Positions 1,975 through 63,821 of a DNA stretch of 64,000 nucleotides are shown here, piece by piece (the first letter of the stretch is position 1; each line of letters begins with the position of its first letter). Source of the DNA: Pelagomonas calceolata (taxonomy: Eukaryota); assembly GCA_918797485.1 (NCBI GenBank), contig CAKKNE010000001.1:3844001-3908000 (forward strand), in the 5' to 3' direction. The notes beneath the pieces are model-generated. The model worked only from the letters and a program-made list of their open reading frames with translations, did not search any database and was not told where the DNA came from. The position numbers were made by a program, and so were the translations under genes.

Positions 1975-1996
1975 CTAGCGTGATCGACACACTAGC
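1975..1996. promoter_or_regulatory. Degenerate copy of the bipartite CTAG promoter-associated motif
   Basis: CTAGCGTGATCGACACACTAGC between divergent genes. Confidence 0.45.
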
Positions 1997-2179
1997 ACCA
2001 ATGAAAGACAGCTGCGTCGTAGTTGAATAGCTGCAAAAACGGGCAGCACAAGGCATCACTGCACCGCCAGAGACTGCAAAAATCGAGGCGTCGTAGTTTA
2101 ACAGCCACCGTGGTATTAGGCTTATCGCTACACCAGTGCAGCATCAAGGCATCACTGCACCGCCAACGAGCGAAGAAGC

Positions 2180-4048
2180 ATGCGCGTGATGCTCTTCGCG
2201 GCCACAGGAGCGCTGCGCTGCAGCAGCCTTCGCCTGAGCGCGCTGCGCACCAACGCTGCACGCCGCGGCGTCGCGTTGCATGCCACAACTTCGGCCGCGC
2301 GCCAGGCGCGGCGCGCGGCGGCACTAAACGACGCGTCGAATCCCTACGCCGGCAAGACCGTCGCGGACCTCAAAGTTTTGCTAAAGGAGCGGGGGCTGCC
2401 CGTGTCGGGCGTCAAGAGTGCGCTCCTCGAGCGGCTCGCGGCCAGCGACGGAGGTGCATTGGCTGCGACCCCGCCGCGACGTGCTGACCCAGCCCTGAAG
2501 ACGGTGGAAGCGGCCGAGGCACCGCCTCAAACTGTACCGAAGAAGAGCGAGCCCACGGGCCGGCCCTTCGCGACGCTCGGCCTGAGTTCGCGCCTCGCCG
2601 CGAATTTAGAAAGCCAATTAGGAGCGGACGCGCGCATGACGCCGATCCAGGAACTCGCGTTTCCCGCGGCGCGGCGCGGAGACGACGTCGTGGCAAGGGC
2701 GCAGACGGGCACGGGCAAGACGCTCGCGTTTCTAGTTCCGAGTCTGGAGCGCCTCGAGACCGACCTCAACAACAGGCGGCCGGCTTTGGTGGTACTGTCG
2801 CCGACGCGCGAGCTCGCGCAGCAGATCCACGCCCAGGCTATGAGCCTCTGCGAGGGTTTGGGGCTGCGGTGCGGCTGCGTCGTCGGCGGCACGAGCAAGG
2901 GCGGGGACCTGCGGCGACTGCGGCGCGGCGTTGATGTATTGTGTGCGACGCCGGGGCGGCTCTGCGACTTGCTGGGCGAGGACGCGAAATTACTGAGGGG
3001 CACGAAAACACTAGTGCTCGACGAGGGCGACCGCTTACTGGACGAGGGTTTTGAAAGGCAGCTCTCGCAGATCATCGAGGCGTCTTCTAGATCTCGTCAG
3101 ACGCTGTGCTTTTCTGCTACCATGCCGGCGGACCTCAAGCGCATGCTCGACTCGGGCGCGGTCCGCTCGGAATACGAGCGCGTCGACGCTACTGGCGCCG
3201 CTGGTTCAGTCGATCAGACGGCCTCAAGGGTGGATCTGCGGCGCGTCGCGCTACCAAAAGGCGCGGACGCGCTGGGCGCCCTCGCGAACGTCCTCAAGAA
3301 GCACAGGGAGGGCCGCGCGGGGTCCAAGGTCGTCGTGTTTCTTCCCACGACGGCCGCGGCCGAGCTGGCGTCGGCCTACCTCGCGAACCGAGGGCTCAGC
3401 AACGCCGCGTTGCACTCGCGCAAGTCCCAGGGCTACCGGACGCGCACGTCCAATGAATTCCGCGACGCCGACGTCGCGCGGGAGCACGCTCTTTTAGTTG
3501 CCACTGATGTTGCGGCGCGCGGGGTTGATTATCCAGGTGTTTCATTAGTCGTACAAGCCGGCACGCCCGACAACCGCGAGCAGTTCGTACATCGCTCGGG
3601 GCGAACCGGCCGCGCGGGCACCGCCGGCGAAGCAATACTACTCGTGGAGGACTGGGAGTTCGCGCTGGCGAGCGATATGCTGTCGGACGTGAAAATGCTG
3701 GACATAGACGCGACAGAATTCCTCGACGCCGTGGCCGACGATTCGCAAAAGGCGATGAACCGCGTTATGCCGGACATACGGAGAAAGGCCTACGTGGGCT
3801 GGCTCGGCCACACGAACGCGCGGTGCAAGACGCTCGGCTGGTCGAAGCAGGAGCTCGTCGACCGCGCGAACGCCATGGCGCGCGAGGACTACCTCCTGCG
3901 CGAGACGCCGTCGCTGACGCCGCGCGCGGTCGGCTTCATGGGTTTGAAGAAAGTTCAAAACCTCCGCGTCGAGAAGCCACCGCCGCGGCAGAACCGCGGC
4001 GCGCCGGCGCCTGGGCGCCGCAAGCAGTCTCGGAAGCCGCGGCGCTAG
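2180..4048 (+). CDS. DEAD-box RNA helicase (MSS116/RH25-31-like) with N-terminal SAP domain, probably organelle-targeted
   Basis: Q motif, AQTGTGKT, SPTRELA, TPGRL, DEGD, SAT, ARGVD, HRSGRTGR. SAP motif KTVADLKVLLKERGLPVSGVKSALLERL. Confidence 0.92.
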   Translation: MRVMLFAATGALRCSSLRLSALRTNAARRGVALHATTSAARQARRAAALNDASNPYAGKTVADLKVLLKERGLPVSGVKSALLERLAASDGGALAATPPRRADPALKTVEAAEAPPQTVPKKSEPTGRPFATLGLSSRLAANLESQLGADARMTPIQELAFPAARRGDDVVARAQTGTGKTLAFLVPSLERLETDLNNRRPALVVLSPTRELAQQIHAQAMSLCEGLGLRCGCVVGGTSKGGDLRRLRRGVDVLCATPGRLCDLLGEDAKLLRGTKTLVLDEGDRLLDEGFERQLSQIIEASSRSRQTLCFSATMPADLKRMLDSGAVRSEYERVDATGAAGSVDQTASRVDLRRVALPKGADALGALANVLKKHREGRAGSKVVVFLPTTAAAELASAYLANRGLSNAALHSRKSQGYRTRTSNEFRDADVAREHALLVATDVAARGVDYPGVSLVVQAGTPDNREQFVHRSGRTGRAGTAGEAILLVEDWEFALASDMLSDVKMLDIDATEFLDAVADDSQKAMNRVMPDIRRKAYVGWLGHTNARCKTLGWSKQELVDRANAMAREDYLLRETPSLTPRAVGFMGLKKVQNLRVEKPPPRQNRGAPAPGRRKQSRKPRR

Positions 4049-4113
4049 TTTATAGTTACCTGTAAAGTCTAATTCGTTCGTAAATCATACACGGTAAATG
4101 ACTGCAAGGAAGC

Positions 4114-4938
4114 TTACGCCGTCCGCGGCGACCGCCCCCCCGCCGCCGCGGCCGACCGCGCGACGATCTCTCCCACTGCACGGTGGTCGACGGGGTTTTC
4201 GGCCAGGGTCCGTAGAAAGCCGACGGCCAGCCCCAGCGGCCGCGCGCCGAAGGCCTCGCACACCTCCGGGTCGTCCGCAATCTCATCCGCGACAGCGTTC
4301 GCCGTCGACTGGACGCAGCGACTCAAGGCCGCGCGGAGGGCGGCGGCCTGGCGTTCGGACAACCGCGGCGCCGGCGACCTAGGCGACCGCGTGCGTGCGG
4401 GAGAACGCGTTTTTGGAGGAGGCGCGCCGCCGAACGCCGGCGACCGCGCGCCCCCCGCAAAGGCCGAGGCGTCATCGTCGTCCGAGGCGTCGTCGTCCTC
4501 CGGGATCTCCTCGGAGCCCTCCTGGACCTCGCGCTCCTCGTCAATCGGTGCGTTTTGCTCCGTGCGGAGCTCCCTGAGTTTTTTGAGAGCAGACCCCGGC
4601 GACAGGCCCTTCAGGGCGTCCGACGAGGGCAGGGGCTTCCGGGGCACCGACGCGAGCGGCAGCGGCGAGACGGCCTCGACCACAGAGGGCGGCGGCGGCG
4701 GCAGCGTCGACGCCTTCGGCTCCGGCGGCTTTAACCTCTCCTGCGCCGCGGCGACGCAGCTGGTCGTGAGCTTTTGCGTTTGCTCCAGGAAGGCCTCGCG
4801 GTCCGTCGCGTTGAGCAGTAGGTCGAGCTCTTGGAGCGCACGGTCGCGGTGGGGCGTGGACCGCCGCGGCGGCATGCCGCGCCGGACGACGACGACGCGC
4901 GGCCTCTCTGTTTGTGTGCGCTCCATGAGCTGGGCCAT
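4114..4938 (-). CDS. Hypothetical protein
   Basis: 274-aa ATG ORF with typical codon usage, convergent with the helicase; no family recognised. Confidence 0.55.
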   Translation of the reverse strand: MAQLMERTQTERPRVVVVRRGMPPRRSTPHRDRALQELDLLLNATDREAFLEQTQKLTTSCVAAAQERLKPPEPKASTLPPPPPSVVEAVSPLPLASVPRKPLPSSDALKGLSPGSALKKLRELRTEQNAPIDEEREVQEGSEEIPEDDDASDDDDASAFAGGARSPAFGGAPPPKTRSPARTRSPRSPAPRLSERQAAALRAALSRCVQSTANAVADEIADDPEVCEAFGARPLGLAVGFLRTLAENPVDHRAVGEIVARSAAAAGGRSPRTA

Positions 4939-10392: not shown

Positions 10393-10416
10393 GCTAGCGG
10401 CCCGTAAGACACTAGC
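10393..10416. promoter_or_regulatory. Bipartite CTAG promoter-associated motif
   Basis: GCTAGCGGCCCGTAAGACACTAGC upstream of the sugar porter. Confidence 0.55.
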
Positions 10417-11823: not shown

Positions 11824-14255
11824 AAGGGGGGGTGCACCAACCCCAAACCGGGTTTCTCAATCAGTTCCGGCGCAAAAATCTCGCAGACTAATTTTCGCGA
11901 CGTCTCAGCTCCGCGTTAGGTTCCGGGCACGGCAGAGAGAGCCCTGACACAGAAAAAACCGCCCGAAACGGCTCAGCAGAGGCTGAGAACAGAAACCAGA
12001 ACATCCTTCAACACGCTAGACGCGGCGACGCGAGGACGCCGCGCCGCTCCCGAGGGGCTATATCAATAGCCCAGACACGCACGAAGCCGTCATGGCCGAG
12101 ACCATGGCCCTCAGGGCCGGCGACGGCTCGACGGGCTCGACGACGCCGTTGGGCGACTTCGATTTACGCCGCTGGGGCGACGACGCCGTTATGACGGAAG
12201 GCGAGCGCAATGAATGGCGCAGACGGCACGCGAAGGCGGCGCCGGCGCGCGCGACGGATGAGTTACCCAAGGCCGACGAGGCCACGGCGCCGCCGTCGGT
12301 CAAGAAGCTAGTGACGCCGCCGTCGAGCGTGTGCGACCCCGACGAGACGGTCGTCGCCGACGAGCCGGTAGTGGCGCCGGAAGGCGTGATCGTTAGCGAC
12401 GGCTCGGACTCGGACGAGGGCTTGGCGCGCGACCGCGCGGCCCGGCTCGACGTGAACCGCCGATTACAAGAGATAGAAGCGCGTCAGGCGCGGCTCGAGG
12501 CGCGCCTAGTGGCGCGGATCGCGGCGTCCGAGAGGGGCGTCGCCGACCTGACCCGCCTCGTGGTCGGGCGGCCCGGGGGCCTGGGCCAGGGGACCCGCAC
12601 GGAAAACCCGTTTCGCCGAGCAAGCCGTTTTGGCCCGGGACGGGCGCCTGCCGGTGCGACGCGGACGCTCGTCCCCCGCCGGTCGCGACCGCGCCGCCGG
12701 GTCCTGAAACGACGCGAACCGGCCCTCCCGTCCGGCCGGCCTCAAGTTCAAGTTAGGCCAGAGCGGGCCTAACGTGCTTCGAGGTCGGCCCGACGGCCGC
12801 GACCGTCGCCGCCGATACCCCGCGCAGGAGTCGCTTATCGTCCGGCGATGGAGCGGAGCGCGGCGATTGGTTCGCGGAGCTCGCAAATCTCGCTTCGTGG
12901 CGGCCCCTCTAGGGCGTGTCCACGCGAGTAGACGCCGGCCGGGGTCCTCTTCGGCCGAGCCGCCTTCGTGGTCTAGCCCACCCCAACGGTGCTACGGCTC
13001 TACCCGGGGCCTCATTCGGGGAAACCTCGCTAACGGCGGTCTCATCTGGGACGTGTCGTGCGAGTGGACGCCGGCCGGGGGCTTCCTCCGGCCGCGCGGT
13101 CTTTGTGGTTTTTGACACGCCCAAACGCTGTCAGGGTTTGACGCGCCCCAAGTCGTTAGACGGTCAGCGGGCTCTCGCTTAGAGCGGGATTTTCGCGGGC
13201 TGTCGAAATCCGAGGAAATGTGCGTGCTGCGTCGCCGCCGAGGGATCATGGGAGGGGGCGAAACGTTGTCCTCAGGGCTCTGGCAGACCCCCCTCTCCCC
13301 TCGCCCGCGTTGTGGGGCGCCCCAATCTGTTGAGCTATCTACGCCGTCTGTGTTTGCGTCGTCGCGAGTGCGGCCGTTGAGAGCAGGCTTTGTATGAGTT
13401 CCGGTGCGCTACCGGGCCCAGACCTCCTGCGCGCGATTCCTGGCGCGTCTTGAAGGGGGGCTAGAGGGGCTAGGGTAAGAGCTTGGAGGGGGGGTTCTAG
13501 CGCAAGACCTCGATGAGCCTTGCGCCGGCAAATCCGGGGCAGTCCTCTGTGGGTTCTATGGAGTAGATACAGACAAAACTTACCGGAGAATAGGGGGATT
13601 TCGGGTCGTGGTGAGGCAAAAACATGCCGAAATGAGGTCGAAATGCCATTTTGAAGCGATTTGGGGGCCGGCTGGACAGACGGAGCGTCGCAGGACTTCG
13701 TTCGTGTACCATGCGTGGGCCGTGACCACTTGTATTGAAGCGTTCGTCCTCCTCGTGGCCGCTTTGGCCCCGTTTACGTCGTTCGCGGCAGGCGCTGCGC
13801 GGCCGCTGGCGGACTATCAGCGCTGGCATAGCTGAAAAAGAGGCGGGAGTGCGGGTCGGAACCTCATCGGGCAACTCACAAACACCCTCTTTCGGGCTGC
13901 GCATGCGTTTTGAAAAATGGCCCAATCCTGAACTCGACCGGTGTTGTGGGCAGCCCCTCAGTCTCCGCCGCGGAGTGCCGAAACTTCATCGGGGCTGCTC
14001 CTACGCCAGCACCAACACCCACTGATGATGCGCCATCGATGAAGTTTTTGCGTAGGAGCAGCCTGCGGCTCGGTAGAGGCGCTTAATGGCACAACGACTG
14101 CCAAAAGCGGCAATTTTAGGGTCCCGTATCGGCCCTCTCCAAACGCGAAGTTTGTTCGACGAGCCAGCTAGAAGCCTCCCTCCGGACAAATGCCCGGACT
14201 TGCCGGCGCAAGGCTGAACCGGAACCCGAGCGGCCATTTTTGTGCACCCCCCCGT
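11824..14255. mobile_element. ~2.4-kb non-autonomous TIR DNA transposon
   Basis: Perfect 12-bp inverted repeat GGGGGGGTGCAC (11826-11837)/GTGCACCCCCCC (14242-14253), flanked by direct repeat TTGTGAAT (11816-11823, 14256-14263). Fills the only long gene-poor gap. Confidence 0.7.
12092..12772 (+). CDS. Hypothetical coiled-coil ORF inside the putative transposon
   Basis: 226-aa ATG ORF; first two thirds look coding (RRLQEIEARQARLEARL), tail is low complexity. Confidence 0.4.
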   Translation: MAETMALRAGDGSTGSTTPLGDFDLRRWGDDAVMTEGERNEWRRRHAKAAPARATDELPKADEATAPPSVKKLVTPPSSVCDPDETVVADEPVVAPEGVIVSDGSDSDEGLARDRAARLDVNRRLQEIEARQARLEARLVARIAASERGVADLTRLVVGRPGGLGQGTRTENPFRRASRFGPGRAPAGATRTLVPRRSRPRRRVLKRREPALPSGRPQVQVRPERA

Positions 14256-14641
14256 TTGTGAATTAAGGCTGCTTTCCGCGGGTTTTGTCGGCTCGTCCGC
14301 GGATACCTATGATCCTCCACAAATCCTCGCTCCCGCAGACCTCTCCGCGGCCCCACTTCCGCAAGAGCCTCGCCCCCGTTTTGCCGAGCGCCGCCGCTGT
14401 TTGCTCTGGCTGGGGCAGCTTTGCACGCGCCGGGGGCAGCCCCCTTTCCAAGCCGCCGCCGCGATCCCTCGAAACGAGTCGCAAGGAGCAGGAATTCGAC
14501 CCGGCGACCGCATCGGGCGAGCACACCACTGGCAACAAAAGGGCAGCTGCAGCGCCCAGTGTTAGCACCTGGGCGCGCGGCGCGCGAGCAGCTGCATAGC
14601 TACAGCGCCGCGCCGACGGCGAAACAAGCCAAAAACAAGCC

Positions 14642-15277
14642 ATGGAGCTCGCGGTCTGCGCCACGCCGCTCACGCCCGTGGCCGCGGCCCGCGCCGCCGT
14701 CACGCTGCGGCGCATGAAGGCGAAACGTAAAGGTAAGAAGAAACTTCGCAGCGCGCCTCCAAAGGCCAAAATTACACGAGAAGCCCCGATCCTTCGAGCC
14801 CAGGAGGCCGCCGCGCGCTTGGAGGCCTCGACGTCAAGGCCACTGCCAGCTGTCCCTCAACAACGGCCGACGACGGGCGCCAAGATGCTGTCGTCGACGT
14901 TTCCGCCGCCTACTAAAGGTCCAGTGGCCGACGTCCAACGGGAACGGCTCAAGGCCAAAGAACGAGTCGCGAAGCACCGGAGGAAGGTCGAGGCGGAACG
15001 TAAAGCCAAGGAGCTGGACGAGGAGAAGCGTCGACGGCAGTACGCCCACGTCGACCTCGACCAATTAAGAGAGGAGGCCGCGAGGCGTGCAAAGGACGCG
15101 GCGGCGAAGAATGCGATGGCGGCGGCGAAGATCGCCGCGGCGTTGAAGGCTAAAAAGGAAGCTGCCGCCGCAAAAAGGGCCGCGGACGCGCGCGCACGGG
15201 AAAGACGTAGGGCGGAGATCTACGCGCTGAACCACATCATGCGCGACTATTTTCGTGGTTTAGGGGCCGTGGACTAA
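14642..15277 (+). CDS. Hypothetical basic coiled-coil protein
   Basis: 211-aa ATG ORF, K/R/E/A-rich helices. Confidence 0.65.
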   Translation: MELAVCATPLTPVAAARAAVTLRRMKAKRKGKKKLRSAPPKAKITREAPILRAQEAAARLEASTSRPLPAVPQQRPTTGAKMLSSTFPPPTKGPVADVQRERLKAKERVAKHRRKVEAERKAKELDEEKRRRQYAHVDLDQLREEAARRAKDAAAKNAMAAAKIAAALKAKKEAAAAKRAADARARERRRAEIYALNHIMRDYFRGLGAVD

Positions 15278-16722: not shown

Positions 16723-16745
16723 GCTAGCGGCTGTAACATACTAGC
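16723..16745. promoter_or_regulatory. Bipartite CTAG promoter-associated motif
   Basis: GCTAGCGGCTGTAACATACTAGC between divergent genes. Confidence 0.55.
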
Positions 16746-16961: not shown

Positions 16962-18050
16962 ATGTCCGAAACCAAGGCGCCGCGCCCGCGCAACGTTTTG
17001 ATCGCCGAGTTCGAGGGCCTCAGCAAGGAGGACGCCAGCCAAGCGCTCCGCGACGCCGGCGGCGACCTCGAGAAAGCCCGAGCGCTCGTGCGCCGCCGCC
17101 GCGCGAACCCCGACGACACGGACGACGACGAGCCCGCGGTGAAAGCCGAGCCGGCGCCGCCGCCGCCTCCGTCCGACGACGAAGACGAGGAAGAGTCGGA
17201 CGACGACGACGACGACGATTACGCATGTACCAGGGCCGAAATCAATACGCCATCGCGTCGATGGCGTGACGCGGTGGATTCCGCACAGGACTTCGACGAG
17301 TGGCGCAACAACCCCTACGGCAAGAAGCCCAAAGCAAAAAAGTCCAAGAAGCTCTCGGACGAAGAGAAGGCGCGGCGCAAGGAGGAGCGCGACCGGAAGC
17401 GCGAGGAGAAGAAACGCGAGGCGCAAAGAGAGAAGGACAAGTGGGCGCAGAACCGCCAATCATTACTGGAGGGCCGCGAGGCGAAGAGCACGCTCGCGAG
17501 CTACGCGGGCAAGTCGTCGTATCTGCACTCCGTCGGCGACCGGCCGAACTTCGCCGACGCGAAGCTGTTGTACGTCAAATCCATCAAGATGGAGGAAAAT
17601 GATTATGGAGAGAAGTACAAGCGCCTGCACACGTTCGCGATCGGCAATGACATTGTACAGTGGTGGGCCTCTACTTCCAACAAGGAGGCCAAGCTCATCG
17701 GCGATCCGGGGTGTGTGGTGGATTTTGCGGGCTCCATCTCGAAGCACTCGGAGTACGACGACTGCCAGATCACTACCGTGATGCGGTTGAAAGTGCACGT
17801 CGTCGACGGCGTGCGCGTCGCGCCCACGCCAAAAGAGAAGAAGAAGAAGGGCCAGAAGCTGTCGGACGACGCGAAGCCCTCGCCGGCGAAGAAGCCCCGC
17901 GTCGCCGGCGGCGCCGCGCGCCAGAAGTCCATGGACAAGGAGCTCTTGCGCGACGACGCCGTCGACGTGGATGATGAAAATAAAGAAATCGTCGACGGCA
18001 ACGACTGGCTCAAGCAGCTCGCGCGGCAGAGAGCGGAGCGCAGAAAGTGA
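16962..18050 (+). CDS. Hypothetical protein with N-terminal UBA-like segment; in-frame GC-AG intron 17223-17288
   Basis: FEGLSKEDASQALRDAGGDLEKA is UBA-like. The 66-nt intron carries the ACGCCATCG..CGATGGCGT hairpin and ends CCGCACAG. Confidence 0.7.
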   Translation: MSETKAPRPRNVLIAEFEGLSKEDASQALRDAGGDLEKARALVRRRRANPDDTDDDEPAVKAEPAPPPPPSDDEDEEESDDDDDDDYACTRAEINTPSRRWRDAVDSAQDFDEWRNNPYGKKPKAKKSKKLSDEEKARRKEERDRKREEKKREAQREKDKWAQNRQSLLEGREAKSTLASYAGKSSYLHSVGDRPNFADAKLLYVKSIKMEENDYGEKYKRLHTFAIGNDIVQWWASTSNKEAKLIGDPGCVVDFAGSISKHSEYDDCQITTVMRLKVHVVDGVRVAPTPKEKKKKGQKLSDDAKPSPAKKPRVAGGAARQKSMDKELLRDDAVDVDDENKEIVDGNDWLKQLARQRAERRK

Positions 18051-18151: not shown

Positions 18152-18173
18152 GCTAGCGCTGTAAGATACTAGC
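18152..18173. promoter_or_regulatory. Bipartite CTAG promoter-associated motif
   Basis: GCTAGCGCTGTAAGATACTAGC about 120 bp upstream of ATG 18296. Confidence 0.55.
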
Positions 18174-20046: not shown

Positions 20047-20069
20047 GCTAGTGTGTTACAGCCGCTAGC
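20047..20069. promoter_or_regulatory. Bipartite CTAG promoter-associated motif
   Basis: GCTAGTGTGTTACAGCCGCTAGC. Confidence 0.55.
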
Positions 20070-21409: not shown

Positions 21410-21708
21410 GAATGGACTAAAAACACAACCAACGTCTCGCTTTGCTCTAAATGCTGGATGGTCGCCGAACGCAATTTTGCGGACTAGCGTATGTAAACAC
21501 ACTAGAGCGGCTGAAACCGCTTTGCTCCGGAACGCGATTGTTTGCCCTCTGACTGCTGTTAAACGCTTCATCAACGCTGCCGTTCTTTTCCGAAGACCAC
21601 GAATTTGCACTCACGGCAATTTCACAACTGCTGCCTTGCGTGCGAGGCCAAAATCTGAGGAGCACGAGTTTGGACCATTTTGACCACGCCCATCACATCG
21701 CATAAACA

Positions 21709-23818: not shown

Positions 23819-23840
23819 GCTAGTGTGTTACACCGCTAGC
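23819..23840. promoter_or_regulatory. Bipartite CTAG promoter-associated motif
   Basis: GCTAGTGTGTTACACCGCTAGC between divergent genes. Confidence 0.55.
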
Positions 23841-24028: not shown

Positions 24029-24984
24029 ATGAGGACATCTATCATAGTAGCAGCCCTGCTGCAACACGCTCTGTCCTTCTTCGCCCCGCCCGTACGAGTC
24101 GCACCGTCGCTGCGTGTAAAGTCGGCAACGCGGGCCACGCCCGACGACGACGCGACCGCTACGGCAGTGGAGGACGCCGTCGCTGCGGTAGAGGACGACG
24201 CGACGCCGAAGCGACGCCCGCTTCGCAACCTATGGCGGCGGATTAGGCGAAAAAAAACGGAGGAGCCTTCTGAGCCCGAGCCCAAGCAGCCGCCCCTAAA
24301 GGTCGGCGAGACTGTCGTGGTCGAGGCGACGGGCCGGAGCGGCAAGGTGAGCCTCGTCGCGGCGAACGGGTGGTGTCAAGTGACTTATGATGACGAGGAG
24401 TGCGAGGGCCAGACGGAGACGCTGCAGTGCCCCGACCTCATGCGCGAGGAGGCGGCCCTCGCAGAGACGATAGACGCGGAGGTGTCGGACTTCGACGAGG
24501 TCCTCATCAAGTGGGGGTTCGTCAGTAACTGCGTGGAAATCAAATTTCAGGCGCCCCACGCCATCGACGCGACGTAGTTCGCGTAACTCACTGGTCGATT
24601 TCTATACAGAAGGAGGACCCGCGCATCCCGGAGGAGTGTCGGGTCGACCAGATGACCCGCATAAAGGACAGCGGACAAGCCGGCGTCATCGCCTACGCGA
24701 TCACGGAAGCTGGTTTTTGGGTCGGCAGCGTGCCGTTCGCCCTCGGCGCCGCGTACGTCGCGACGGGCGAGATCCCGGACTGGACGACCGAGGAGGGCAA
24801 GACGGCATTGGGCGGCTACGCCTTCGTGCTGATCAACTTCGCGCGGCTGATCGTGCCCGCGCGGATAGCCCTGGCGCTGGCGTTCGCGCCGTGGGTGGAC
24901 GAGAACATCGTGAAGCGGATCAATCCACCGGACCCGGCGGACTTGCCTGAGGACTGCGTCGTCGAGGAGGCGGGTGCGGAGTAA
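24029..24984 (+). CDS. Plastid-targeted membrane protein (C-terminal FAM210/DUF1279-like); intron 24521-24609
   Basis: ALSFFAP presequence; a GT-AG intron joins ORFs 24029 and 24652 in frame (WGF|KED); C-terminal PARIALALAFAP. Confidence 0.75.
24529..24609. mobile_element. Introner element (TSD not recognisable)
   Basis: TIR-like CTGCGTGGAAATC/GATTTCTATACAG; interior very similar to the 48656 copy. Confidence 0.8.
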
Positions 24985-25004: not shown

Positions 25005-25026
25005 GCTAGTGTCTTACAGAGCTAGC
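25005..25026. promoter_or_regulatory. Bipartite CTAG promoter-associated motif
   Basis: GCTAGTGTCTTACAGAGCTAGC about 100 bp upstream of the FKBP ATG. Confidence 0.55.
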
Positions 25027-30820: not shown

Positions 30821-30839
30821 CTAGCTGTGAGACACTAGC
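30821..30839. promoter_or_regulatory. Short variant of the bipartite CTAG motif
   Basis: CTAGCTGTGAGACACTAGC between divergent genes. Confidence 0.45.
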
Positions 30840-34852: not shown

Positions 34853-34877
34853 GCTAGTGCCTTTACACGACGCTAGC
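34853..34877. promoter_or_regulatory. Bipartite CTAG promoter-associated motif
   Basis: GCTAGTGCCTTTACACGACGCTAGC between divergent genes. Confidence 0.5.
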
Positions 34878-35595: not shown

Positions 35596-35774
35596 ACTGG
35601 TGTGCGTGCATATATGGCGCCGGCGGATGGCTGGAGCGCTAAGTTGTAGGATAAACTTAATACTCCACGTCTACGCGTGCGTCATCCCGAATCGCGCCGA
35701 TGGCGTCGAGGGGGGGCACTTCGAATAGACAATATAAAACAGCGAGAAGGATTTCTTTCGCCACGACACGACGC

Positions 35775-39885
<4,111 letters not shown>

Positions 39886-42017: not shown

Positions 42018-42040
42018 GCTAGCGTGATGTAACACACTAG
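42018..42040. promoter_or_regulatory. Bipartite CTAG promoter-associated motif
   Basis: GCTAGCGTGATGTAACACACTAG between divergent genes. Confidence 0.55.
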
Positions 42041-42237
42041 GAAACAGCTCGAGGCTCGAGCTGTGGTCTTGTTTTTGGCCTCCTGCAAGCTTGCTTCGTC
42101 ATCTGAGAGTCGCATCGATGCTCCAGGTTGCTGCGGTTTTAAACTGAGCGCGAACGCGCCAGTTACCGGAGCGCTAGGTGCCACAGAGCAAATACTGAGA
42201 GAGAACCGGTTGCCGCAGCGCTGGACGCCGCAGAGCA

Positions 42238-43866
42238 ATGAGCTCCTCCTGGACATGTAATCAATGCACCTACGTGCATTCTGACGCCGAGGCGCAGTTC
42301 CTCTGCTGCGCCATCTGTAGCGCAGAACGGCCGAAGGCGATCGCTCCTGCGTCGGCACAGGCCGCGGCACCGGCCCCGGCGCCGGCCGCCGCGAGACCGC
42401 GCGCGAAACCGCCGGTCGGGGCCAAGCCGCGCGTGAGCCTGAGCCTGCAACGCCCGGGGCCCGCGACGACGCGACCCGCGCCGCCGCCGCCGCCGGCACC
42501 GACGCCCCCGGTCGACGAGGCCGACGCCGCCGCGCCGCCCACAACCGCAAAAAAGAAGCCGCTCGCCCCGCTCTTCCTGCCCAAGAAGCGCCCGGCGCCG
42601 CCCCCCAAGGCGCGGGCGCCGCTCAAGGCGCCGCGGACGGCCGCCGCCTGGCCCATACAATCCCAGAGGACCGTCGCGCTGCGGTTTTCGATGGCGCGGG
42701 ACGGCGAGGGCCGCGTGCGTGCCTCGATCGAGCGCGGCGGGCCGCAGGCGCCGGCGGCCGGCCGGCGCCGCGTCTTCGAGGCAGAGCGGACCTGCAAGTT
42801 GGCGCTGGCGCACGAGGGCAAGGCGGCCTGCGACGTGAAAATCCACCTGACGCTCGACACTGCCGGTGAAGACGGCGCGGCGTGGCGCGACCGGCGGACC
42901 TACACGGGCGCCAGGGCCGCGGGCGGCCTCGGCCTGCTCCAGTCGCACCTCCAAAAGTGCGTCCGGCGCGGGAACGTGGACCTGGCCGTGCGGTCGGCGC
43001 ACGAGCTGGCCGGCATCACGTATGCCCCGGCGTTGCGTGAAGGCGCCTTCGCTGCCGCGTCGGTGGCGTAGACGCGTCGTGCCCGACGCAGGTTTGGACC
43101 GACGGACCCCGCGGGTATTAAGATGCTCGTGCGGCGCCTGCCGGTCATCGCCGTCGAGGACTCCGCGGCGCTCCCCTGTATAGTGCCAGCCGTCTGGTAC
43201 ATGATGGCTTTGTCGCCGACCGAGAAGTCGCCCGCGACGTACAAGCCCACTGCACAAGACGTCCTCGTCCTGTGCGCGTGTGCGGCCCAGCTCGCGGCGC
43301 ACGGGAGCCGCGACCGGTTCCCGCCGCCGCGCAAGGGCCGCAACGAGCTGCCGACGGACGGCGTCAACCTCGCGCTGCTGATCCGCGCGGCCTACGGCGG
43401 CATGAAGGGCGACGTCGCCATGCTCAGGGAGCGCGCGCACGCCGCGGCGCCGGACGAGACTAGTCCGTGGCTCGCGCCCGTCGCCGCGCCGCCCGCCCTG
43501 CGTCCGGGCGACTGGCTGCTCGAGGGCGTCGACTTCCACCAGAAGGGCGGCGAGATCCTCGGCCGCATGCGGGCCAAGGACATGGCGCTCCAGTCCGTGA
43601 CTGTGCTGAAATCGACCCCACGCCATCGAGCTGCCGCAGTTGCGGGGACGACGTCGCGTCGATGGCGTGGGGCGTCCGCAATTTGATTTCCGCACAGGTT
43701 CGTGTCCGACGAGGATCTGAAGAAGTGGATCTGGCATACGCGGTCAAAATGCAACCGTCGCGACGCGCCGCGGGAGCCGTCGGCGCCGCCGCCCTGGGCC
43801 GACGCGGCCGCGCGCGCGGCGGACGCGGCGGCGCGGGACATGATCGCTGGTGCATGGCGGGGGTAG
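42238..43866 (+). CDS. Protein with RanBP2-type zinc finger and an MgsA-C-like helical domain; introns 43020-43091 and 43593-43697
   Basis: WTCNQCTYVH....CAIC; LLQSHLQKCVRRG, RRLPVIAVED, YGGMKGD..ML, VDFH. Splicing gives one continuous frame ending TAG 43866. Confidence 0.78.
43601..43697. mobile_element. Introner element
   Basis: TIR CTGTGCTGAAATC/GATTTCCGCACAG; TSD GTCCGTGA/GTTCGTGT (6/8). Confidence 0.82.
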
Positions 43867-43964
43867 TGGCCTTGTGACTGTGTGACTCTAAGTGATCTCA
43901 ATGTGGTGGATATTGTAGGGTTCCAGAGGGTTCTTAGAAACTGCACGGGTTTTTCATAACAGGT

Positions 43965-44370
43965 CCGTGATTTCGGATGTTCCAAAATCCGAACTCCCAA
44001 AAACGGCTCAAGCGGAGGCGCCGGCGCGCCCGGACGGGTCAGGCACACGCTGAGAGGGTTAGAGGACGTGGGAGAGGGGGTTGGGGAGACGCGTCGACGT
44101 CCCGCGCGAAATTTGGGCGAGAAGGAGCGGGCACTTTTCAATGCCCGCGACCGCTTTACATAGGTCGGAATCTTACCTATCCGTCCCGTGGCACCTTTCA
44201 ATGCCGCGGGTCGGGCCCTGGAAGGCCCCACGACACGATCCCGCGTCCCGCGCCCGTCGTCCCCTCTCCCACAGGTCCATTTTTACCCTTCTTCGGAGCT
44301 TCGGATCCGAAAATTTTCTCGAACTCGGGCCTTCGGCCCGAGTTCGGATTTTGGGCCTCCGAAATCACGG
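43965..44370. repeat. Intergenic element bounded by ~31-bp imperfect inverted repeats (MITE-like)
   Basis: CCGTGATTTCGGATGTTCCAAAATCCGAACTC (43965-43996) is inverted relative to GAGTTCGGATTTTGGGCCTCCGAAATCACGG (44340-44370). Confidence 0.65.
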
Positions 44371-44449
44371 GTTTTTCACAGATTTTTTTCGACGTTTGGC
44401 CAAGCCGAGCCATTTGCGCACGATCAAGTGTGTTGTGTGTGTAACCCTG

Positions 44450-44872
44450 ATGGCCACGTACTCGCGCCAACTGCTCTCACGGCACAAGACGACGGCTACG
44501 TATGGTGGCCAGGAAGAAGGGAGAGAGAGCATGCTTAAGGTGAGGCAGGGAGTTGGAACGGGCGCCTTACGCCATCGACGCGTTTACGCATTCACGCAGG
44601 TCTTCCCGCCGCGCCCGAACAAGATGTGGGAGACGTTCCACATCGTCGCGTACGAGTCCTACGAGAAGCCCGGCCAGTACGGCGACGCGCAGCAAACAAT
44701 CCAGCGCTTCACGGACCTGGAAGGTGCCCACGCCGCGACCGTCGCGAAGCTCAACAAGGGCGACAAGGTTCGCTTAGAATGGGACCACAACTACGTGACG
44801 CGGTCCGAAAACGGCGGCGGCGAGAGCAAGTACCCCGAGCGCGTCATCACGGCGCTCGAGCCCGTCGCGTAA
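44450..44872 (+). CDS. Small hypothetical beta-rich protein; in-frame intron 44540-44599
   Basis: ATG 44450; 60-nt GTGAGG...CACGCAG intron with the ACGCCATCGACGC core; C-terminus V.L.W.H.YVT....KYPER. Confidence 0.65.
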   Translation: MATYSRQLLSRHKTTATYGGQEEGRESMLKVRQGVGTGALRHRRVYAFTQVFPPRPNKMWETFHIVAYESYEKPGQYGDAQQTIQRFTDLEGAHAATVAKLNKGDKVRLEWDHNYVTRSENGGGESKYPERVITALEPVA

Positions 44873-45539: not shown

Positions 45540-45563
45540 GCTAGCGTACTTTAAGACACTAGC
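45540..45563. promoter_or_regulatory. Bipartite CTAG promoter-associated motif
   Basis: GCTAGCGTACTTTAAGACACTAGC between divergent genes. Confidence 0.55.
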
Positions 45564-48037: not shown

Positions 48038-48061
48038 GCTAGTGTCTTACATGCCGCTAGC
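48038..48061. promoter_or_regulatory. Bipartite CTAG promoter-associated motif
   Basis: GCTAGTGTCTTACATGCCGCTAGC between divergent genes. Confidence 0.6.
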
Positions 48062-48216: not shown

Positions 48217-49481
48217 ATGAGGCGGCCGTGGCTCACAATCGCGCTCGCCACTCGCGTGATCGCCGAGGACGACGCTATCGCCGCCTACGTCCGCTTCGCC
48301 CGGACGACACTCCCGAAACTTGAAAAAGCGTGGGCGGCGCCGCACCGAGCTGACCCCGTAACACAAAGCAAACGCAGCCGCGTCCTCCTGCTCACGTTCC
48401 CGAACTCGGGCACGTCATACACCATCCGAGCCGCCGAGTGCCTCGCCGACTCGCAGATGTGCTCCTCCTATATCCACGAGTGCGAGAAAAGCCGTATTGT
48501 TGGAGAGCGGCCTCACCACCCGTTTCTGGACCGGAATCCGGAGCTCATCTCGTTTCAGGGAGGGAGAATGAGAATACGGGACCCGGCCAAATTAGAAAAG
48601 GCCATGGCGCTGTATTTTAATGGAAGGCCCGCAGAGCAATTAGTCGAGTTCCAGGCTGTGTGGAAATCAAATTGCAGGCGCCCCACGCCATCGACGCAAC
48701 CTAACTCACTGGTTGATTTCCACACAGGTTCCAAGCCAGCCTCGCGAACCTCACGGCGGCGGCGCCCGTGCGGGAATGTGGAAAGGGCGCCTGGGTGTTA
48801 AGGGACGACAATCAAACTATGTCCGACGCGGCGTCCCCGCTCGTAAAGTGGCACGGCGTAAGTTATGGAGGCGACGGCGACCTACCCGCCTCAGCACTTA
48901 TACGGGAGTTCAGGTATCGGTTCGAGAGAGACGACGACTGGCCCGTTGTGCGCGTTCTGAGGTTGACGCGCAACGTCTTCGACAATTTAGTGGCAAGGCA
49001 TCACCTCGAGTGCAAAGCTAGGCGGCCGACATGCCCGACGGGCGTCGCGACGCGCGAGAACTTCGTGCGAGGCGGTCCGCCCGTCGACGACGGGGGCCCC
49101 CACTTTTTGAGAGATGTCTGCAAGTACATGAAGTGGCACCACCGCGCGGCGGCGATGCGGCGCAACTCGACGAAGCCCTGGACGACGCTGGCCTACGAGA
49201 CGTTGTACGAGGACTCTCCAAAGTACTTCCAGACGGTCTTGGAGACGCTGGGGTTGGAAGGGGACGGCGCCGCGGGCATGGAGAAGCCGGTCCCGCGCTG
49301 CACGATGGACCAGGCGCGACTCAAGACGAGGGAGGTGGCCCGCGCCCAGGGCGTCGCGCTGCCCGTCTACCTGCACATGTTCGACGCGCCGACGATCCGA
49401 CGCATCGACATGCTCGTCGGGCGCTACCTGGACAGCTCGGACAACTTCGCCGCGCCGGACATCAAGCCCTGCATGGAGTAA
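48217..49481 (+). CDS. Secretory-pathway sulfotransferase-like protein; intron 48648-48727
   Basis: Signal peptide; LLTFPNSGTSY (PAPS loop), LVKWH, LTRN.FDNLVAR, LAYETL. Confidence 0.75.
48656..48727. mobile_element. Introner element
   Basis: Perfect 15-bp TIR CTGTGTGGAAATCAA/TTGATTTCCACACAG; TSD GTTCCAGG/GTTCCAAG (7/8). Confidence 0.92.
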
Positions 49482-49487
49482 CAACAA

Positions 49488-50850: not shown

Positions 50851-50874
50851 GCTAGTGTCTTACAGACCGCTAGC
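50851..50874. promoter_or_regulatory. Bipartite CTAG promoter-associated motif
   Basis: GCTAGTGTCTTACAGACCGCTAGC between divergent genes. Confidence 0.6.
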
Positions 50875-51045: not shown

Positions 51046-53022
51046 ATGCCCATCGTCGACGTCGAGCTGAAGCGAGACGTGCCACGGCCGCGCCGCGGCT
51101 ACGTGAAATATGCGCTCACGGCTATCGCTGCCGTCTTATTTTTTCACGGCGCCGCGACGTTCGCGCTCCATCGCCACCTGCACGACCAGGGCCACGGCCG
51201 CCACCACAGCATCGATGGCGAACAAGACCGGCCACCACCACCGGAGGAGGCCGACGCGCCGCCGCCGCTGGAGCACGCCCCGGCCGCGGCGGCCCACGCG
51301 GCCGCCGAGCGGCTGAAAGCGAAACCGGACCACAAGCCCGACGGCGGCCGGCCCCAGGCGCCGCCGCCGCGCAAAAAACCACCCGCGAAGACGGCGCGGC
51401 CACTTTCCGGCGCGCAAACACCCGCGAAGACGCCGCCGCGCAAAACACCGAACCTGTGGCAGCCGCCGGCGCGCGGCGTGAAGGTACCCCTCGACCCGCC
51501 GCCGCGGCCGCCGCTCCCAAAACTGGGCGACGGCGTCGCGCTTTTGCGCGCCGACGCGCCTGAGGTCTACGATGCCATCGACGACGCCACCGTGGCGCAA
51601 CGAGTCCTGCCCTGTGTGGAATTCAACCAGTGAGTTAGATTGTGAGCCTCCACGCCATCAAGCCGATGCGGCCACGGAAAAAACGTCGCATCGATGGCGT
51701 GGGGCGCCCGAAATTTGATTTCCACACAGGTCCTGCCGCAGTCGTTTTTGAATAGGGAACGCGCGGCGCAGATCACGAAAAGGAAAGACTTCTGGCCGGA
51801 CGAATCCATTTTCGTGTCTGTGGCGTCCTACCGCGATCCTGAAATTGCGAAAACAGTCGCTAGAGCGTTCGAGCGCGCCGCGGACCCGGACCGCGTGTTC
51901 TTTGGTATCTTCCAGCAAAACGACGAATCCAAGGACGTCGACGCCGTGCGCGGCCTCGCGCCTCTGATACAGTGCCCGGGCCACGCGGCGTGTGGTAGAG
52001 TGCGCAACGGACAAATTAGAATTCATAGAATCGCGTGGAAGGACACGCTCGGGCCGACCGTGGCAAGGCACCTCTCCGAAACTTTATATGGGAACGAGAC
52101 TTATGTTATTTCTTTCGATTCGCATACGAACTTCGCGCACGGCTGGGACGTCATCGCCATCGACATGTTCAAGCGCATCAATAATCCAAGGGCCATCGTC
52201 ACGACGTACCCGGCGTCCTATAGTGCGACGGAGCACTCGGAGCGCTGGAAGGTTTTGGATGAGAAGGGGCCCTGTGTCGAATGTCGGAAGGTCGACGACC
52301 AAGCTAACGTAGATGTGCCCGTGCTCTCATCAAGGCAGATGTCCATTTGCAGAACTAGGAGGGTGGCGGTCGGGCGGACGACGTCTTTTAAACATGACGT
52401 TAACTCGATGCAGCGGCCCCCGAAGCCGACGTTGGTTCCTTTCTTGGCGGCCGGGTTCAATTTTGCGTCGGGGCGGCGCATTCTCGAAGTACCTTACGAC
52501 GCGCACTCGGCGTATTTGTTCGACGGCGAGGAGACGTCGCTCGCGGTCCGGGCGTGGACGCACGGCTACGACTTCTACCATCCAGATAGAGATATTGTAT
52601 CGCACCTCTACATCCCGAACAGGTCGCCGCTGCGCCCCGTTTTTTGGACCCAGGACTGGGGCCAGCGGGCGCGGGTCCAGTTCTGGACGATGCTGCGCAT
52701 CAATTATTTGTTGGGGCTGCACGACCTGTTGGACTACTGGGTGAACGCGACGCTGCTGGACACGCGCGACGCCACGATCTACGGCCTCGGCACGCGCCGC
52801 CGCGCCGTGGACTATTGGTCTTACGTGGGCGTCACACCCGATCGGGACGGCGTCGAGTGGTCGCCGGGGCGCTGCAAGGTCTTCTCGACGACGGGGCTGC
52901 CCGCGTTTCCCGTCGACGCGCCGGGCTCGCACAACGACTATTCAAAATACGCCGAGAGCTTTCCGTCCGAGGCGATGGCCGAGGCGACGGTCGACGCCAA
53001 CTACGCGAGGCAGTTTCTCTAG
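51046..53022 (+). CDS. GT60-family GlcNAc transferase, type II membrane; intron 51604-51729
   Basis: TM + Pro-rich stem; IFVSVASYRD, GP..AR, DSH..F..GWD, FLAAGFNF, LFDGEE...R.WTHGYD. Confidence 0.88.
51612..51729. mobile_element. Introner element (opposite orientation to the 48656 copy)
   Basis: TIR CTGTGTGGAATTCAA/TTGATTTCCACACAG; perfect TSD GTCCTGCC (51604-51611, 51730-51737). Confidence 0.93.
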
Positions 53023-54292: not shown

Positions 54293-54680
54293 TTCGACCT
54301 TTGGGAGCTTGGTAATGCTGCTGCGCTAGCTCTGCGGCGTGCACAAGCTGCTCTGGTCACGCCGTGTGCTGCAGCCTAGCAGCGGTCTCGCCAGCACGAA
54401 AGGTCCTTCGCAGTAGCGCTACGTGCCAGAGACACAAAATTTGCAAGCAAATTGATGGCGTTTATCCGTGCTCGGAATTGCGGGCAGATGCGTTCTAGTA
54501 TGTCAATAGACGCTAGCTCGCAGCGCTGGGAAAAACTGACGAGACAAGCGCCTGGGGCGCCAGAGGAGCAGACGGGCTGCTCAGCAGCGCTAAGGCTAAG
54601 GCTTGAAGCAATTCGCAGCGTGAGCCTTAGACTCCTGACGCCCAGCGGCCTCAATCCGACAGCCTCAAGCCGACAGCCTG

Positions 54681-56048: not shown

Positions 56049-56552
56049 ATCCCCTTGTTCCCTCCCCGCCCGCCGCGCGGCCGAAGACGCGCGCGACTCC
56101 CTCCTCCTCCTCTCTCTGCGTATATAATTCATTCTTGTGACTCTGCAGTGAGCCATCGGCGGCGCGCGCCGGCCGCCGGCCGCGAGTCGTCCGCGATCCG
56201 CCCCGCGGGCAATTAACTACCCTTCTATGGGCTATTCAGTGTATTGAAGTGCTTAACAAGGGCGCACGGGGACTCCGCACAAAACCCGAACATAGCCGAG
56301 CTTGATGCAAACGCGTACGCATCGCAGTGGATACGGTGGCTTAGACCGCCGATAAACAGCAGCAGCGTTCACAGAAGAACGCATTCGACCGGTGCAGCGG
56401 GCCCACGACAGCTTCCTTGGCACCCAAGAGAGCCTGCAACCCGGAGAGCATCTTGGCTGCACAGCCGCTACCGCCGTGCAACCCCACAACCTAGCTGTAA
56501 CAGCTCACGCCATCGACGCGACACACGCATAAAAAAAACCGATCGAGCGACC

Positions 56553-57401: not shown

Positions 57402-57565
57402 GCGCGCGCGCGGGCGTAAGTGCATATGCTCGATGGCGTCAGTGGAGTTTCCACGCCATCGACGCGACGTCGTCCCCATCATCACCGCGCCTGCTCGATG
57501 GCGTGGAGGTTGCGACGAGAAGGTAAGATAAAGCAGGAGTTAAAACATGGGGCGGGGCCGCGCGA

Positions 57566-57862: not shown

Positions 57863-58146
57863 GGTCGCGGGTTGCTCGTTATTCCAACGCTATATTCTCA
57901 GCGCGCCGCGGCGACGACGCGTGTGTAAATACAGCTTGAGTAGCAGCTGTTTGAGGTGCCGGTGAACGTTGGCGGGGCCGCGCACCAAAGGCAGCTTGAG
58001 GAGCAGTGTGGGCTGGTGGGCGTCGCCGGGCGTCGCGCCGAATCTGTCGTGCGCAGCGCTTCTAGAGATCTCAGAAATTGCAAGCAGCCGCCGAGGTGAC
58101 CTCCAGCAGTTCCCGTTTCCCTTGCCCTGGCTGTTTGTCGAAGCTT

Positions 58147-58170
58147 GCTAGTGTGTTACGGGCCGCTAGC
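58147..58170. promoter_or_regulatory. Bipartite CTAG promoter-associated motif
   Basis: GCTAGTGTGTTACGGGCCGCTAGC upstream of the 57862 gene. Confidence 0.55.
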
Positions 58171-58172
58171 TC

Positions 58173-58591
58173 CTAATGCGAGAGCCAGCCGCGCCCCGGG
58201 GACGCGAAGAGTCCTCCGTAGTCCTCGGGCAAGTGCCCCCGCGACCTCTGGGGATCGCAAACACAAGTTAAGCGGGGAGGGTGTCGCGCCTCACTCGCGG
58301 TGCACCATGCCGTACGTGTAGTTCGAGTCGAACTGGAAGTGGGGGTAATACGCCTCGGCGTTGCCTGCGCGCGGGGACTTAATCGAGGCGCCATAGTCCG
58401 AAGAATTCCCGCGCCGCGCGCGCGCCGCGGACGTCCGCCGCGGCTTTGAGCGCCGCGGGTGTCGGGTAGAACCAGCCCTCTTCCGTGGTCCCGTTGCGGA
58501 AGGTGGACTTTTGGTTGTAACGCCCCGGAGCGGCGGCTTGTTGGGGCTGATGGGTTCCTGCAGAGCCTGCAGTGTCTCGCGGCGGCGCCAT
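58173..58591 (-). CDS. Putative small multi-exon hypothetical gene
   Basis: Three coding-like blocks in different frames separated by intron-like stretches; splice sites ambiguous. Confidence 0.35.
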
Positions 58592-59013
58592 GGGGCTGCT
58601 CGGCTGTGCCAACGACGCGCGAGGAAGAAATGTCGACGACGGCCAGCCGGAAAAGCACAATGTGCTACACAAAAACCAAAAGCCCATGAAATGGCAAGGG
58701 CAGGGGCCTTGGCCTCTCCAAACCCGACCGACCACAACCGACTCCAGCGCTCCGCGAATCAAGGACTCCTCCCGTCCCGCACCGGCGCCTCGAAACGCGG
58801 CCTCAAACGACCCCCCTCAAATGGAAGCGAGCCGCTATCTCAGCCTCTCGGAAGGCAGAGGCGCGCAAATAGCGGCTGTTCCACTGCCCGAGCGCGCATA
58901 CGACCCAAGGACCAATTGGGTGAGACACCCAAGTGTGCATACGACCCGACGAGCAGCCCGAAGATCTGGGGGGCGGGCTGCTCCCGCCCTCATTGGACAT
59001 ATTGTACATAACC

Positions 59014-59307
59014 ATGCTGCGCGCGCTCCTGGCCAGCTTGTTGCTCACGGCGCTCTACGCTAGAGCGCTCACCGGCGCCGAGCGCCGCGCGCCCCTCCGC
59101 GCGAAACGCACAAAGCGGCCTCCCAGCAGCTCCGCCGGCGCGAAGACGCGGACGCGCTATGTAGACGATCCGGGCTTCGTCGGCGACGGCTACTTCGAGG
59201 CCGTCGAGGTCCACCGGAGGGAGCCGCCGCGCGCCGCGCGGACGCCGGCCTTGGACTTCGGGAATGCGACGCGGCCCGTCTACGTCGCGGACCCGCTCTG
59301 GCTCTAG
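59014..59307 (+). CDS. Short hypothetical secreted protein (possibly incomplete)
   Basis: ATG + signal peptide MLRALLASLLLTALYARA. Confidence 0.4.
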   Translation: MLRALLASLLLTALYARALTGAERRAPLRAKRTKRPPSSSAGAKTRTRYVDDPGFVGDGYFEAVEVHRREPPRAARTPALDFGNATRPVYVADPLWL

Positions 59308-60427: not shown

Positions 60428-60499
60428 GACCCGCGTCGCCTCGACTCTCCGGGACAACCGGTACAAGACTGAAATACGAGCGGGGATTTCCGGGTGCAT

Positions 60500-60521
60500 G
60501 CTAGCGGTGTAAGACACTAGC
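60500..60521. promoter_or_regulatory. Bipartite CTAG promoter-associated motif
   Basis: GCTAGCGGTGTAAGACACTAGC between divergent genes; a half site AAGACACTAGC also lies near 60587-60597. Confidence 0.6.
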
Positions 60522-60626
60522 AAAGCAAGCAAGCAGCAGCAAAAGCAGCGAGACCGCTGCGTTCCGCATGGTATAGGTGCAGTTTAAAGACACTAGCACC
60601 ACCGCACCGCAGCATCAAAAGCAGCC

Positions 60627-62882: not shown

Positions 62883-62893
62883 CATTAAACTAG

Positions 62894-63667
62894 TTATGGC
62901 CTCATCCCAAAACCGCCGGACGGCCGGTGGCAGACACAGTTCGTGCGCCAGAGCCCGAGCCGGTTGTGCGCGAAGTCCGTCAGGGCGCGGTGCGCGCCGC
63001 GCGTCGCTAGGTCCGCGAGAGTACTGTAGAAGACGTTCACCGAGACCGAGACGTCGAGCGACCGCACGGCGTGGAACCAATCCCGCGGGATGAAGAGGGC
63101 GTCTCCCGCCCGCAAGACGAAGCTCAGCGGCGGCGCGCAGCCCGCGTACGGCGGATGCTGCCGCGCCTTCTCCGCCTCGGACAGAAACGCGTCGATCTCG
63201 CAGCACTCCGTGCCGTTGTCATACCTTGGATTCGGGTCGAGGTGCCTCCTTGAATTCGGCGGGTAGAGCAGGACGTGCTTGGAACCGTGCGTCACTATTA
63301 ATACATTGTCCTCGTCGTCGCTGTGCAGTCCGGTGGTCGCGTCGGCGCCGCCGACCCATAAAAACGCCGTCTCCTGGACCCACGACGTGAGAAAAGGCGC
63401 GTGCGCCCGCAATGACCACCGGCAGCCCAGATCCTCGAGCGGGCACTGCTTCAGGTAGCCCGCGCGCGGGTCGCCGCGGAGCGTCGCACAGAAGTGGCCG
63501 AGCGTGACGTCCTCCTTGCTCGATTCCGCTGCGACCCTCTCCTCGCACCCGTGCGAGACGGCAACGCGCTTGTCCGGTTTTAAAGTTGCCACTTCTTCGG
63601 GTGTTTGTGGTAGCGCGGAGGCGTCGACGGCGACGAGGTGTGGGGTTGGTGTGGTTTTGCTTGCCAT
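62894..63667 (-). CDS. JmjC (cupin_8) 2-oxoglutarate/Fe dioxygenase
   Basis: LWVG, TGLHSD..DN, GSK..LLYPP, L.AGDALFIP..WFHAVRSL. Confidence 0.9.
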   Translation of the reverse strand: MASKTTPTPHLVAVDASALPQTPEEVATLKPDKRVAVSHGCEERVAAESSKEDVTLGHFCATLRGDPRAGYLKQCPLEDLGCRWSLRAHAPFLTSWVQETAFLWVGGADATTGLHSDDEDNVLIVTHGSKHVLLYPPNSRRHLDPNPRYDNGTECCEIDAFLSEAEKARQHPPYAGCAPPLSFVLRAGDALFIPRDWFHAVRSLDVSVSVNVFYSTLADLATRGAHRALTDFAHNRLGLWRTNCVCHRPSGGFGMRP

Positions 63668-63798
63668 GTCTGCAGCCCAGTGCAGTGAGGCGTGGGCGTG
63701 GGCTAGCAGTGCTGCTCAGAGGTCGTCTTCCACAAATATTGAGGAGCTGTGCGAGCGCGCGCACTGCTGATCCAGCACGAGGACGAGCTGGCTGATTT

Positions 63799-63821
63799 GC
63801 TAGTGTCTTACTGCACGCTAG
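63799..63821. promoter_or_regulatory. Bipartite CTAG promoter-associated motif
   Basis: GCTAGTGTCTTACTGCACGCTAG upstream of the JmjC gene. Confidence 0.55.

Follow-up and report, generated by a model that had tools for sequence, protein, structure and literature searches.

A bipartite DNA motif of about 30 bp, in which two CTAG-containing arms flank an asymmetric core, occurs 18 times in a 64,000-nucleotide stretch of the Pelagomonas calceolata genome (contig CAKKNE010000001.1 of assembly GCA_918797485.1, positions 3,844,001 to 3,908,000, forward strand; hereafter the window, whose own numbering is used throughout). The motif is a real, conserved and apparently undescribed bidirectional promoter element of pelagophytes. 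It is likely to be recognised by an abundant DNA-binding factor, probably a dimer, which would maintain an open promoter and steer initiation to both strands.

Sequence and placement of the motif

A first-pass annotation of the window listed 18 copies of the motif, and a pair of CTAG tetranucleotides in the bipartite arrangement is indeed present at each of these positions. The consensus as then written fared less well: its strict form matches 8 of the 18 copies and is too short, given that flanking GCTT and CT are preferred and the spacer is partly specified. A relaxed grammar recovers 20 sites in the window, that is, the 18 copies and two weak sites at 1847, within a coding region, and at 33701. 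Null sequences from Markov models of order 1, 3 and 5 (60 each, 180 in total) contained at most two relaxed and no strict matches. Similarly, CTAG pairs spaced 16-19 bp apart occur 18 times in the window, whereas 5000 permutations averaged 1.2 such pairs and never exceeded 6.

A pattern scan of metagenomes returned at least 125 stretches, from which 122 loci were stored, yielding 127 unique sites after one duplicate locus was removed. The extended consensus of these sites, among the matches listed, is (T)GCTT-GCTAGTGTCTTAC-A(G)G(C/A)C-GCTAG-CT, in which the core was fixed by the search pattern and the flanks and spacer alone are unbiased. The two arms are inverted copies of GCTAG(T/C)G, set 16-19 bp apart around an asymmetric TSTTAC core; the spacer comprises 3-6 bases (mode 5, metagenome sites), and information content returns to background within 5 bp outside the motif. 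A weight-matrix scan of the promoters lacking the motif revealed no hidden copies; the same scan also missed the insertion variant at 21484. A second core variant, CTAGTRTGTC, often followed by RAT and combined with an intact right arm, is found at 1975-1996 and 54494-54517 in the window and in metagenomic loci L073, L074, L166 and L168; it is possibly a tolerated form or the mark of a second partner factor. One locus (L063, 1250-1299) contains two copies back to back, with 6 bp between them, the sole such double seen.

Manual annotation of the sequence gave 43 genes in the window (Pfam matches were obtained for 21 of 44 scanned frames), and the strands of these genes match the strand-specific RNA depth in two 19.9-kb stretches. 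As the first-pass annotation had claimed, the motif is intergenic and mostly lies between divergent genes: all 17 copies located between annotated genes are intergenic (intergenic fraction 0.21, P about 2e-12), with the 18th upstream of the last gene, and copies are found in 13 of the 15 divergent gaps versus 4 of the 12 tandem ones (Fisher P=0.007), or 17 of the 27 promoter-containing gaps. When copies were placed at random on intergenic DNA, none of 50,000 trials hit as many as 13 divergent gaps. No gap in the window carries more than one copy, an avoidance of doubles with P=0.0007 under random intergenic placement, which suggests that a single site serves both genes of a divergent gap. The claim that convergent gaps lack the motif is true (0/15) but uninformative because these gaps are tiny (median 61 bp; P=0.42).

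The motif lies within 400 bp upstream of the start codon of 30 of the 43 genes. These genes represent diverse Pfam families with unrelated housekeeping and metabolic functions, so that the enrichment is at promoters of functionally unrelated genes. The distance from the motif edge to the ATG, previously put at 70-300 bp, is 71-361 bp (median 181 bp, 29 arms); start codons in the metagenome loci are mostly 120-210 bp away. Genes in these loci were called with a rough codon-based caller trained on the window, whose refined starts agree with 26 of the 29 training starts. Outward genes adjoin 48 left and 47 right arms of the 136 called, revealing no orientation bias, and of the 54 sites whose arms were both of sufficient length, 52 have one or more outward genes and one was called convergent. 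Thus, the strand bias relative to the gene that is seen in classical core promoter elements (TATA, INR, FPR, DPEP) is absent. The reverse-strand TGTAA recalls a poly(A) signal of the type known from green algae, and we rejected this reading because the tandem copies are split by strand 2:2 in the window and 12:9 in the metagenome.

Transcript starts and flanking composition

Transcript starts were examined in raw stranded poly(A) RNA-seq from one sample (X21-X24), covering two stretches of the window. Among the rows listed, there are 21 clusters of RNA 5' ends, of which 10 are upstream of motif-linked genes and two are at promoters without a nearby motif. All 10 listed clusters of motif-linked genes point outward from the motif, and seven of these fall 17-46 bp from the motif edge, where chance would put 3.1 within 50 bp (P about 0.01). 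Two promoters, at 21484 and 23819, have starts on both strands; the motif lies in the interval between these starts, which measures 79 and 99 bp, respectively. The strongest cluster, 58120-58131 (up to 74 molecules), adjoins the motif even though the start codon is 263 nt beyond. Together with the divergent enrichment, the single copy per region and the lack of orientation bias, these outward 5' ends on both strands support the earlier proposal of a bidirectional promoter element.

The right side of the 58147 copy (58170-59014) is almost free of RNA for about 700 bp, in contrast to very high expression on the left; in mature RNA, this copy therefore acts one-way. Elsewhere, RNA 3' ends pile up at 24981, in the stop codon of the gene at 24029-24984, about 20 bp before the next motif copy, implying that this gene has almost no 3' untranslated region.

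The sequences on either side of the motif share a mirror-symmetric composition. T runs are concentrated 6-26 bp outward from the motif (79 observed versus 16 expected), as are A runs (59 versus 30). Further out, both flanks have a band rich in A/T at 60-80 bp, after which CpG rises at 95-120 bp and falls to a trough at 130-160 bp. The residuals of the left and right flanks are correlated (r=0.79 for CpG, r=0.61 for A/T dinucleotides), values reached by none of 300 jittered nulls; bootstrap intervals for the flank features exclude zero; and the CpG profiles of the window and the metagenome agree (r=0.67). These features keep their position relative to the motif across strata of ATG distance and flatten when the sequences are aligned by the ATG; the CpG trough is missing on arms that face a gene end. 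From this symmetric, motif-anchored composition we infer an open region of about 180 bp, which would be flanked by positioned -1 and +1 nucleosomes.

Conservation beyond the window and individual copies

The stored metagenome loci, with a G+C (GC) fraction of 0.51-0.74 and excess CpG in most, are pelagophyte-like DNA; the window itself, at 63.6% GC, shows an excess of CpG and contains intron elements. The best named relatives of the PAPS reductase encoded in the window are from Aureococcus (74%) and Chrysophaeum (72%), and those of a protein from locus L053 are likewise pelagophytes. The L053 and L076 loci are 82-85% identical in aligned stretches, a divergence indicating that more than one lineage carries the motif. 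In the orthologous pairs L053/L076 and L052/L144, the motif is an island of identity, whereas the neighbouring intergenic DNA has diverged. Four other groups (L041/L067/L093, L072/L113, L073/L080/L081 and L089/L127) were set aside because they are not clean orthologous promoters; L089 and L127 share the motif and about 150 bp downstream and differ further out, a pattern that duplication or exchange of a promoter segment might leave. None of the loci found overlaps the window by 120 bp or more, so that no orthologue of a window promoter was seen. Beyond the seeds, the 209 kb of metagenome loci contain 22 further copies, or one per 9.5 kb, which is likely a lower bound, and the window contains one per 3.6 kb.

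In a viral collection, a looser pattern gave 40 single, chance-like matches, mostly in AT-rich DNA, and the fuller consensus gave none. Among prokaryote genomes (596 Gb), there were only six matches (L163-L168), every one in a marine metagenome-assembled contig. In several of these contigs, the motif is next to alga-like frames adjoining bacterial-looking genes. Two of them, L166 and L168, have 765 bp in common at 94.6% identity and yet are labelled as a gammaproteobacterium and an archaeon, which suggests that these contigs are chimeric or contaminated.

Copies of the motif in the window, with their surroundings and the RNA 5' ends next to them
Position	Strand	Form	Surroundings	RNA 5' ends (strand)
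1975..1996	-	degenerate core variant TGTCGAT	divergent gap, bestrophin / DEAD helicase	
10393..10416	-	strict	tandem gap; upstream of sugar transporter	
16723..16745	-		divergent gap	
18152..18173	-		tandem gap	
20047..20069	+	strict	tandem gap; upstream of PGP phosphatase	
21484..21505	-	1-base insertion in core	divergent gap	21456 (-), 21535 (+)
23819..23840	+	strict	divergent gap	23786 (-), 23885 (+)
25005..25026	+	strict	tandem gap, 20 bp past upstream stop codon; upstream of FKBP	
30821..30839	-	short spacer	divergent gap, PAPS reductase / eIF2B-type	cluster 30695 (-), 126 bp off
34853..34877	+	degenerate core	divergent gap	35001-35006 (+), ~127 bp off
42018..42041	-		divergent gap by TAF5-like gene	41916 (-), 103 bp off
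45540..45563	-		divergent gap	45520 (-), 21 bp off
48038..48061	+	strict	divergent gap	
50851..50874	+	strict	divergent gap	
54494..54517	+	degenerate core variant TGTCAAT	divergent gap	
58147..58170	+	strict	263-nt leader	strongest cluster, 58120-58131 (-), 17-28 bp off
60500..60521	-	strict	divergent gap, rhomboid / mRNA capping enzyme	60550 (+), 30 bp off
60585..60597	-	left half-site only	inside leader, past the 60550 RNA 5' end	
63799..63822	+		upstream of JmjC/cupin gene; right neighbour outside window	

The window also contains short repeated elements with a CCATCGACGC-type core (991-1075, 17227-17289, 24521-24609, 43600-43698, 48653-48728, 51600-51730 and 57430-57510), which we take to resemble the introner elements of pelagophytes; they are mostly intronic, with one in a convergent gap, and draw reads from elsewhere. 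At 35657-37010, a long gene encoding an AAA-type domain has at its 3' end an array of WD40-like repeats, with a near-identical short intron in each. Two long non-coding blocks (12772-14642 and 43866-44450) lack the motif, and positions 44180 and 44211 differ in most RNA reads, suggesting repeats.

Candidate mechanism, alternatives and significance

Sites of the yeast factors Reb1, Abf1 and Rap1, of which the Abf1 site is likewise bipartite, occur in promoters of many unrelated genes, as the pelagophyte motif does. There is no likeness in sequence, and the pelagophyte motif differs in its length of ~30 bp, its variable spacer and its presence at 30 of the 43 window genes. Remodelers are reported to build symmetric nucleosome arrays around Reb1 sites whatever their orientation (10.1101/2020.02.28.969618). 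Like Reb1 sites, the pelagophyte motif is orientation-free and has symmetric flanks with nearby T/A runs. A likeness was also noted to the RFX X-box, with a GTTGCTAG-like half-site, or GTTRCY with a leading G: the left arm of the motif often reads TTGCTAG. We rejected this assignment because the defining G three bases before GCTAG is present in 8% of 124 sites (C in 50%); the right arm, furthermore, lacks the TT.

The motifs reported for human bidirectional promoters (SP, NFY, ETS, ZNF143, NRF1 as well as CREB; 10.1101/2023.06.27.546584) appear to work similarly and differ in sequence, and at POLR1C/YIPF3 a CGCG element is described as separating two divergent starts that are 30 nt from each other (PMC6192621). 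Compared with these, in the compact algal genome one long element dominates, with one copy per region and an activity that is inferred. Among stramenopiles, the oomycete CCAAT motif is reported as orientation-free and upstream of the start, and the 7-nt oomycete elements INR (YCAYTYY), FPR (MWTTTNC) and DPEP (SAASMMS) as forward-biased and present in 7-18% of promoters (PMC3599244); none of the latter three resembles the pelagophyte motif. The best reading of these comparisons is that the motif would work like the site of a general regulatory factor or a human bidirectional site and, by sequence, belongs to neither group, the motif sequences compared including TCTCGCGAGA.

A factor bound at the motif would probably hold the promoter open and direct initiation outward on both strands. 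Two protomers may recognise the two inverted GCTAG(T/C)G arms, with either protomer or a partner reading the TSTTAC core.

Several observations weigh against this account. Of the 43 window genes, 13 have no motif within 400 bp upstream; no copy is close to the strong starts at 56320-56336 and 58864-58870, and the well-expressed genes at 56553 and 59014 start without one. The motif is thus not required at every promoter and would be one route to a promoter among others. Three of the 10 listed clusters are as far as 103-127 bp from the motif edge, nine of the 21 are inside genes and were excluded, and all are read ends rather than capped ends. Both members of each orthologous pair were chosen for holding the motif, so that the pairs provide a contrast with the flanks and no rate of retention. 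The nucleosome-positioning signal suggested in the first pass has indirect support in the motif-anchored, mirror-symmetric composition, but periodicity is lacking: none of 25 tests detected a 10-bp dinucleotide period in the flanks, no clear CpG period of nucleosome length was found there, and intron elements are not phased relative to the motif (P=0.6, n=28). The A/T profile of the 36 window arms does not correlate with that of the metagenome (r=-0.04). Finally, yeast general regulatory factors are reported to repress divergent transcription as well (PMC9481977).

The foremost alternative, which we consider unlikely, is that the motif is a symmetric core promoter, in which each GCTAG arm would occupy position -30 for one direction and, in place of a TATA box, be recognised by an initiation factor specific to the lineage. 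Inverted arms fit two directions, and five of the seven close RNA 5' end clusters are ~27-34 bp from the near arm, compared with the 25-34 bp reported for the TATA box (PMC6192621). However, the starts are spread over 17-46 and 103-127 bp; the separate A/T-rich band at 60-80 bp could serve later starts; two genes share a single copy, whose spacer varies; and some strong promoters lack the motif. Hence there is little support for the earlier suggestion of a core element, in the strict sense of one fixed in its distance to the start. The G/C-rich arms are also ill-suited to the TATA-binding protein. A more far-reaching version, to which we assign a low probability, is that most promoters of Pelagomonas-type algae are defined by this single long, symmetric element together with a reader specific to the lineage, with the start ~30 bp from each arm. 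Such a eukaryotic promoter grammar with one master site would resemble a bacterial consensus promoter more than a combination of weak motifs.

Less probable is an insulator or roadblock, in which the bound factor would mainly separate transcription units and block read-through rather than activate. All four tandem copies are 20-111 bp past the upstream stop codon, the pile of RNA 3' ends at 24981 is just ahead of the 25005 copy, and yeast general regulatory factors are reported to serve as roadblocks and repressors (PMC5052057, PMC9481977). Against this, divergent gaps, where nothing terminates, are the preferred location of the motif, and arms facing a gene end lack the CpG trough. A replication-origin signal, read by the origin recognition complex or a helper and merely sitting in open intergenic DNA, would fit a long, conserved, intergenic motif with an asymmetric core; we deem it very improbable, since the motif is tied to RNA starts and its density, in the window and at one or more per 9.5 kb elsewhere, far exceeds that of eukaryotic origins.

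A DNA cruciform or RNA hairpin acting without sequence readout is scarcely credible. The arms do form a 7-bp inverted repeat (including one T-G pair), but they do not covary (Fisher P=0.27), the next pair is a T-C mismatch in the commonest form (79/139), the mean DNA fold energy is just -3.5 and -2.4 kcal/mol on the two strands, an Rfam search of the window gave no match, and the mapped RNA 5' ends are outside the motif. Given the lack of covariation, the mismatch, the weak folds and the absence of an Rfam family, readout of the sequence by a protein, probably by two protomers around the asymmetric core, would be the simplest account. Least credible of all is a dispersed transposon end or footprint (a Helitron, whose terminus is CTAG, a miniature inverted-repeat transposable element or an introner), an option that the first-pass annotation had itself raised and that the numerous dispersed copies might suggest: the flanks are unrelated (pairs of 50-bp flanks with >60% identity, 0/7626 upstream and 0/7750 downstream) and information drops to background within 5 bp, which refutes it at this sensitivity, and there is one copy per promoter with placement shared by orthologues, although an ancient, fully domesticated origin is conceivable.

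The first-pass annotation knew of no description of the motif, and our search of open papers and of bioRxiv main texts on promoters and motifs of Pelagomonas, pelagophytes, stramenopiles and Aureococcus likewise found none among the matches listed. A 2014 study of linker methylation reportedly profiled Aureococcus. The words 'promoter' and 'motif' are absent from the main texts of PMC9481584, PMC13284251 and 10.1101/2024.10.30.620910, the portions of the five PMC9481584 supplements that were covered make no relevant use of them, and the promoter motif mentioned in PMC5917014 is, in the part consulted, viral.

P. calceolata, with a genome of 63% GC, is reported to be among the most abundant eukaryotes in the ocean (PMC9481584). 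For a bidirectional promoter element, the motif is unusual in its length and prevalence. It could be used as bait for finding the factor, as a short candidate bidirectional promoter for transgenes, and as a marker for gene starts and for pelagophyte DNA in metagenomes, considering its near absence from prokaryote genomes. A site of such high information upstream of 30 of the 43 genes in the window would provide a handle on transcription start in this algal class.

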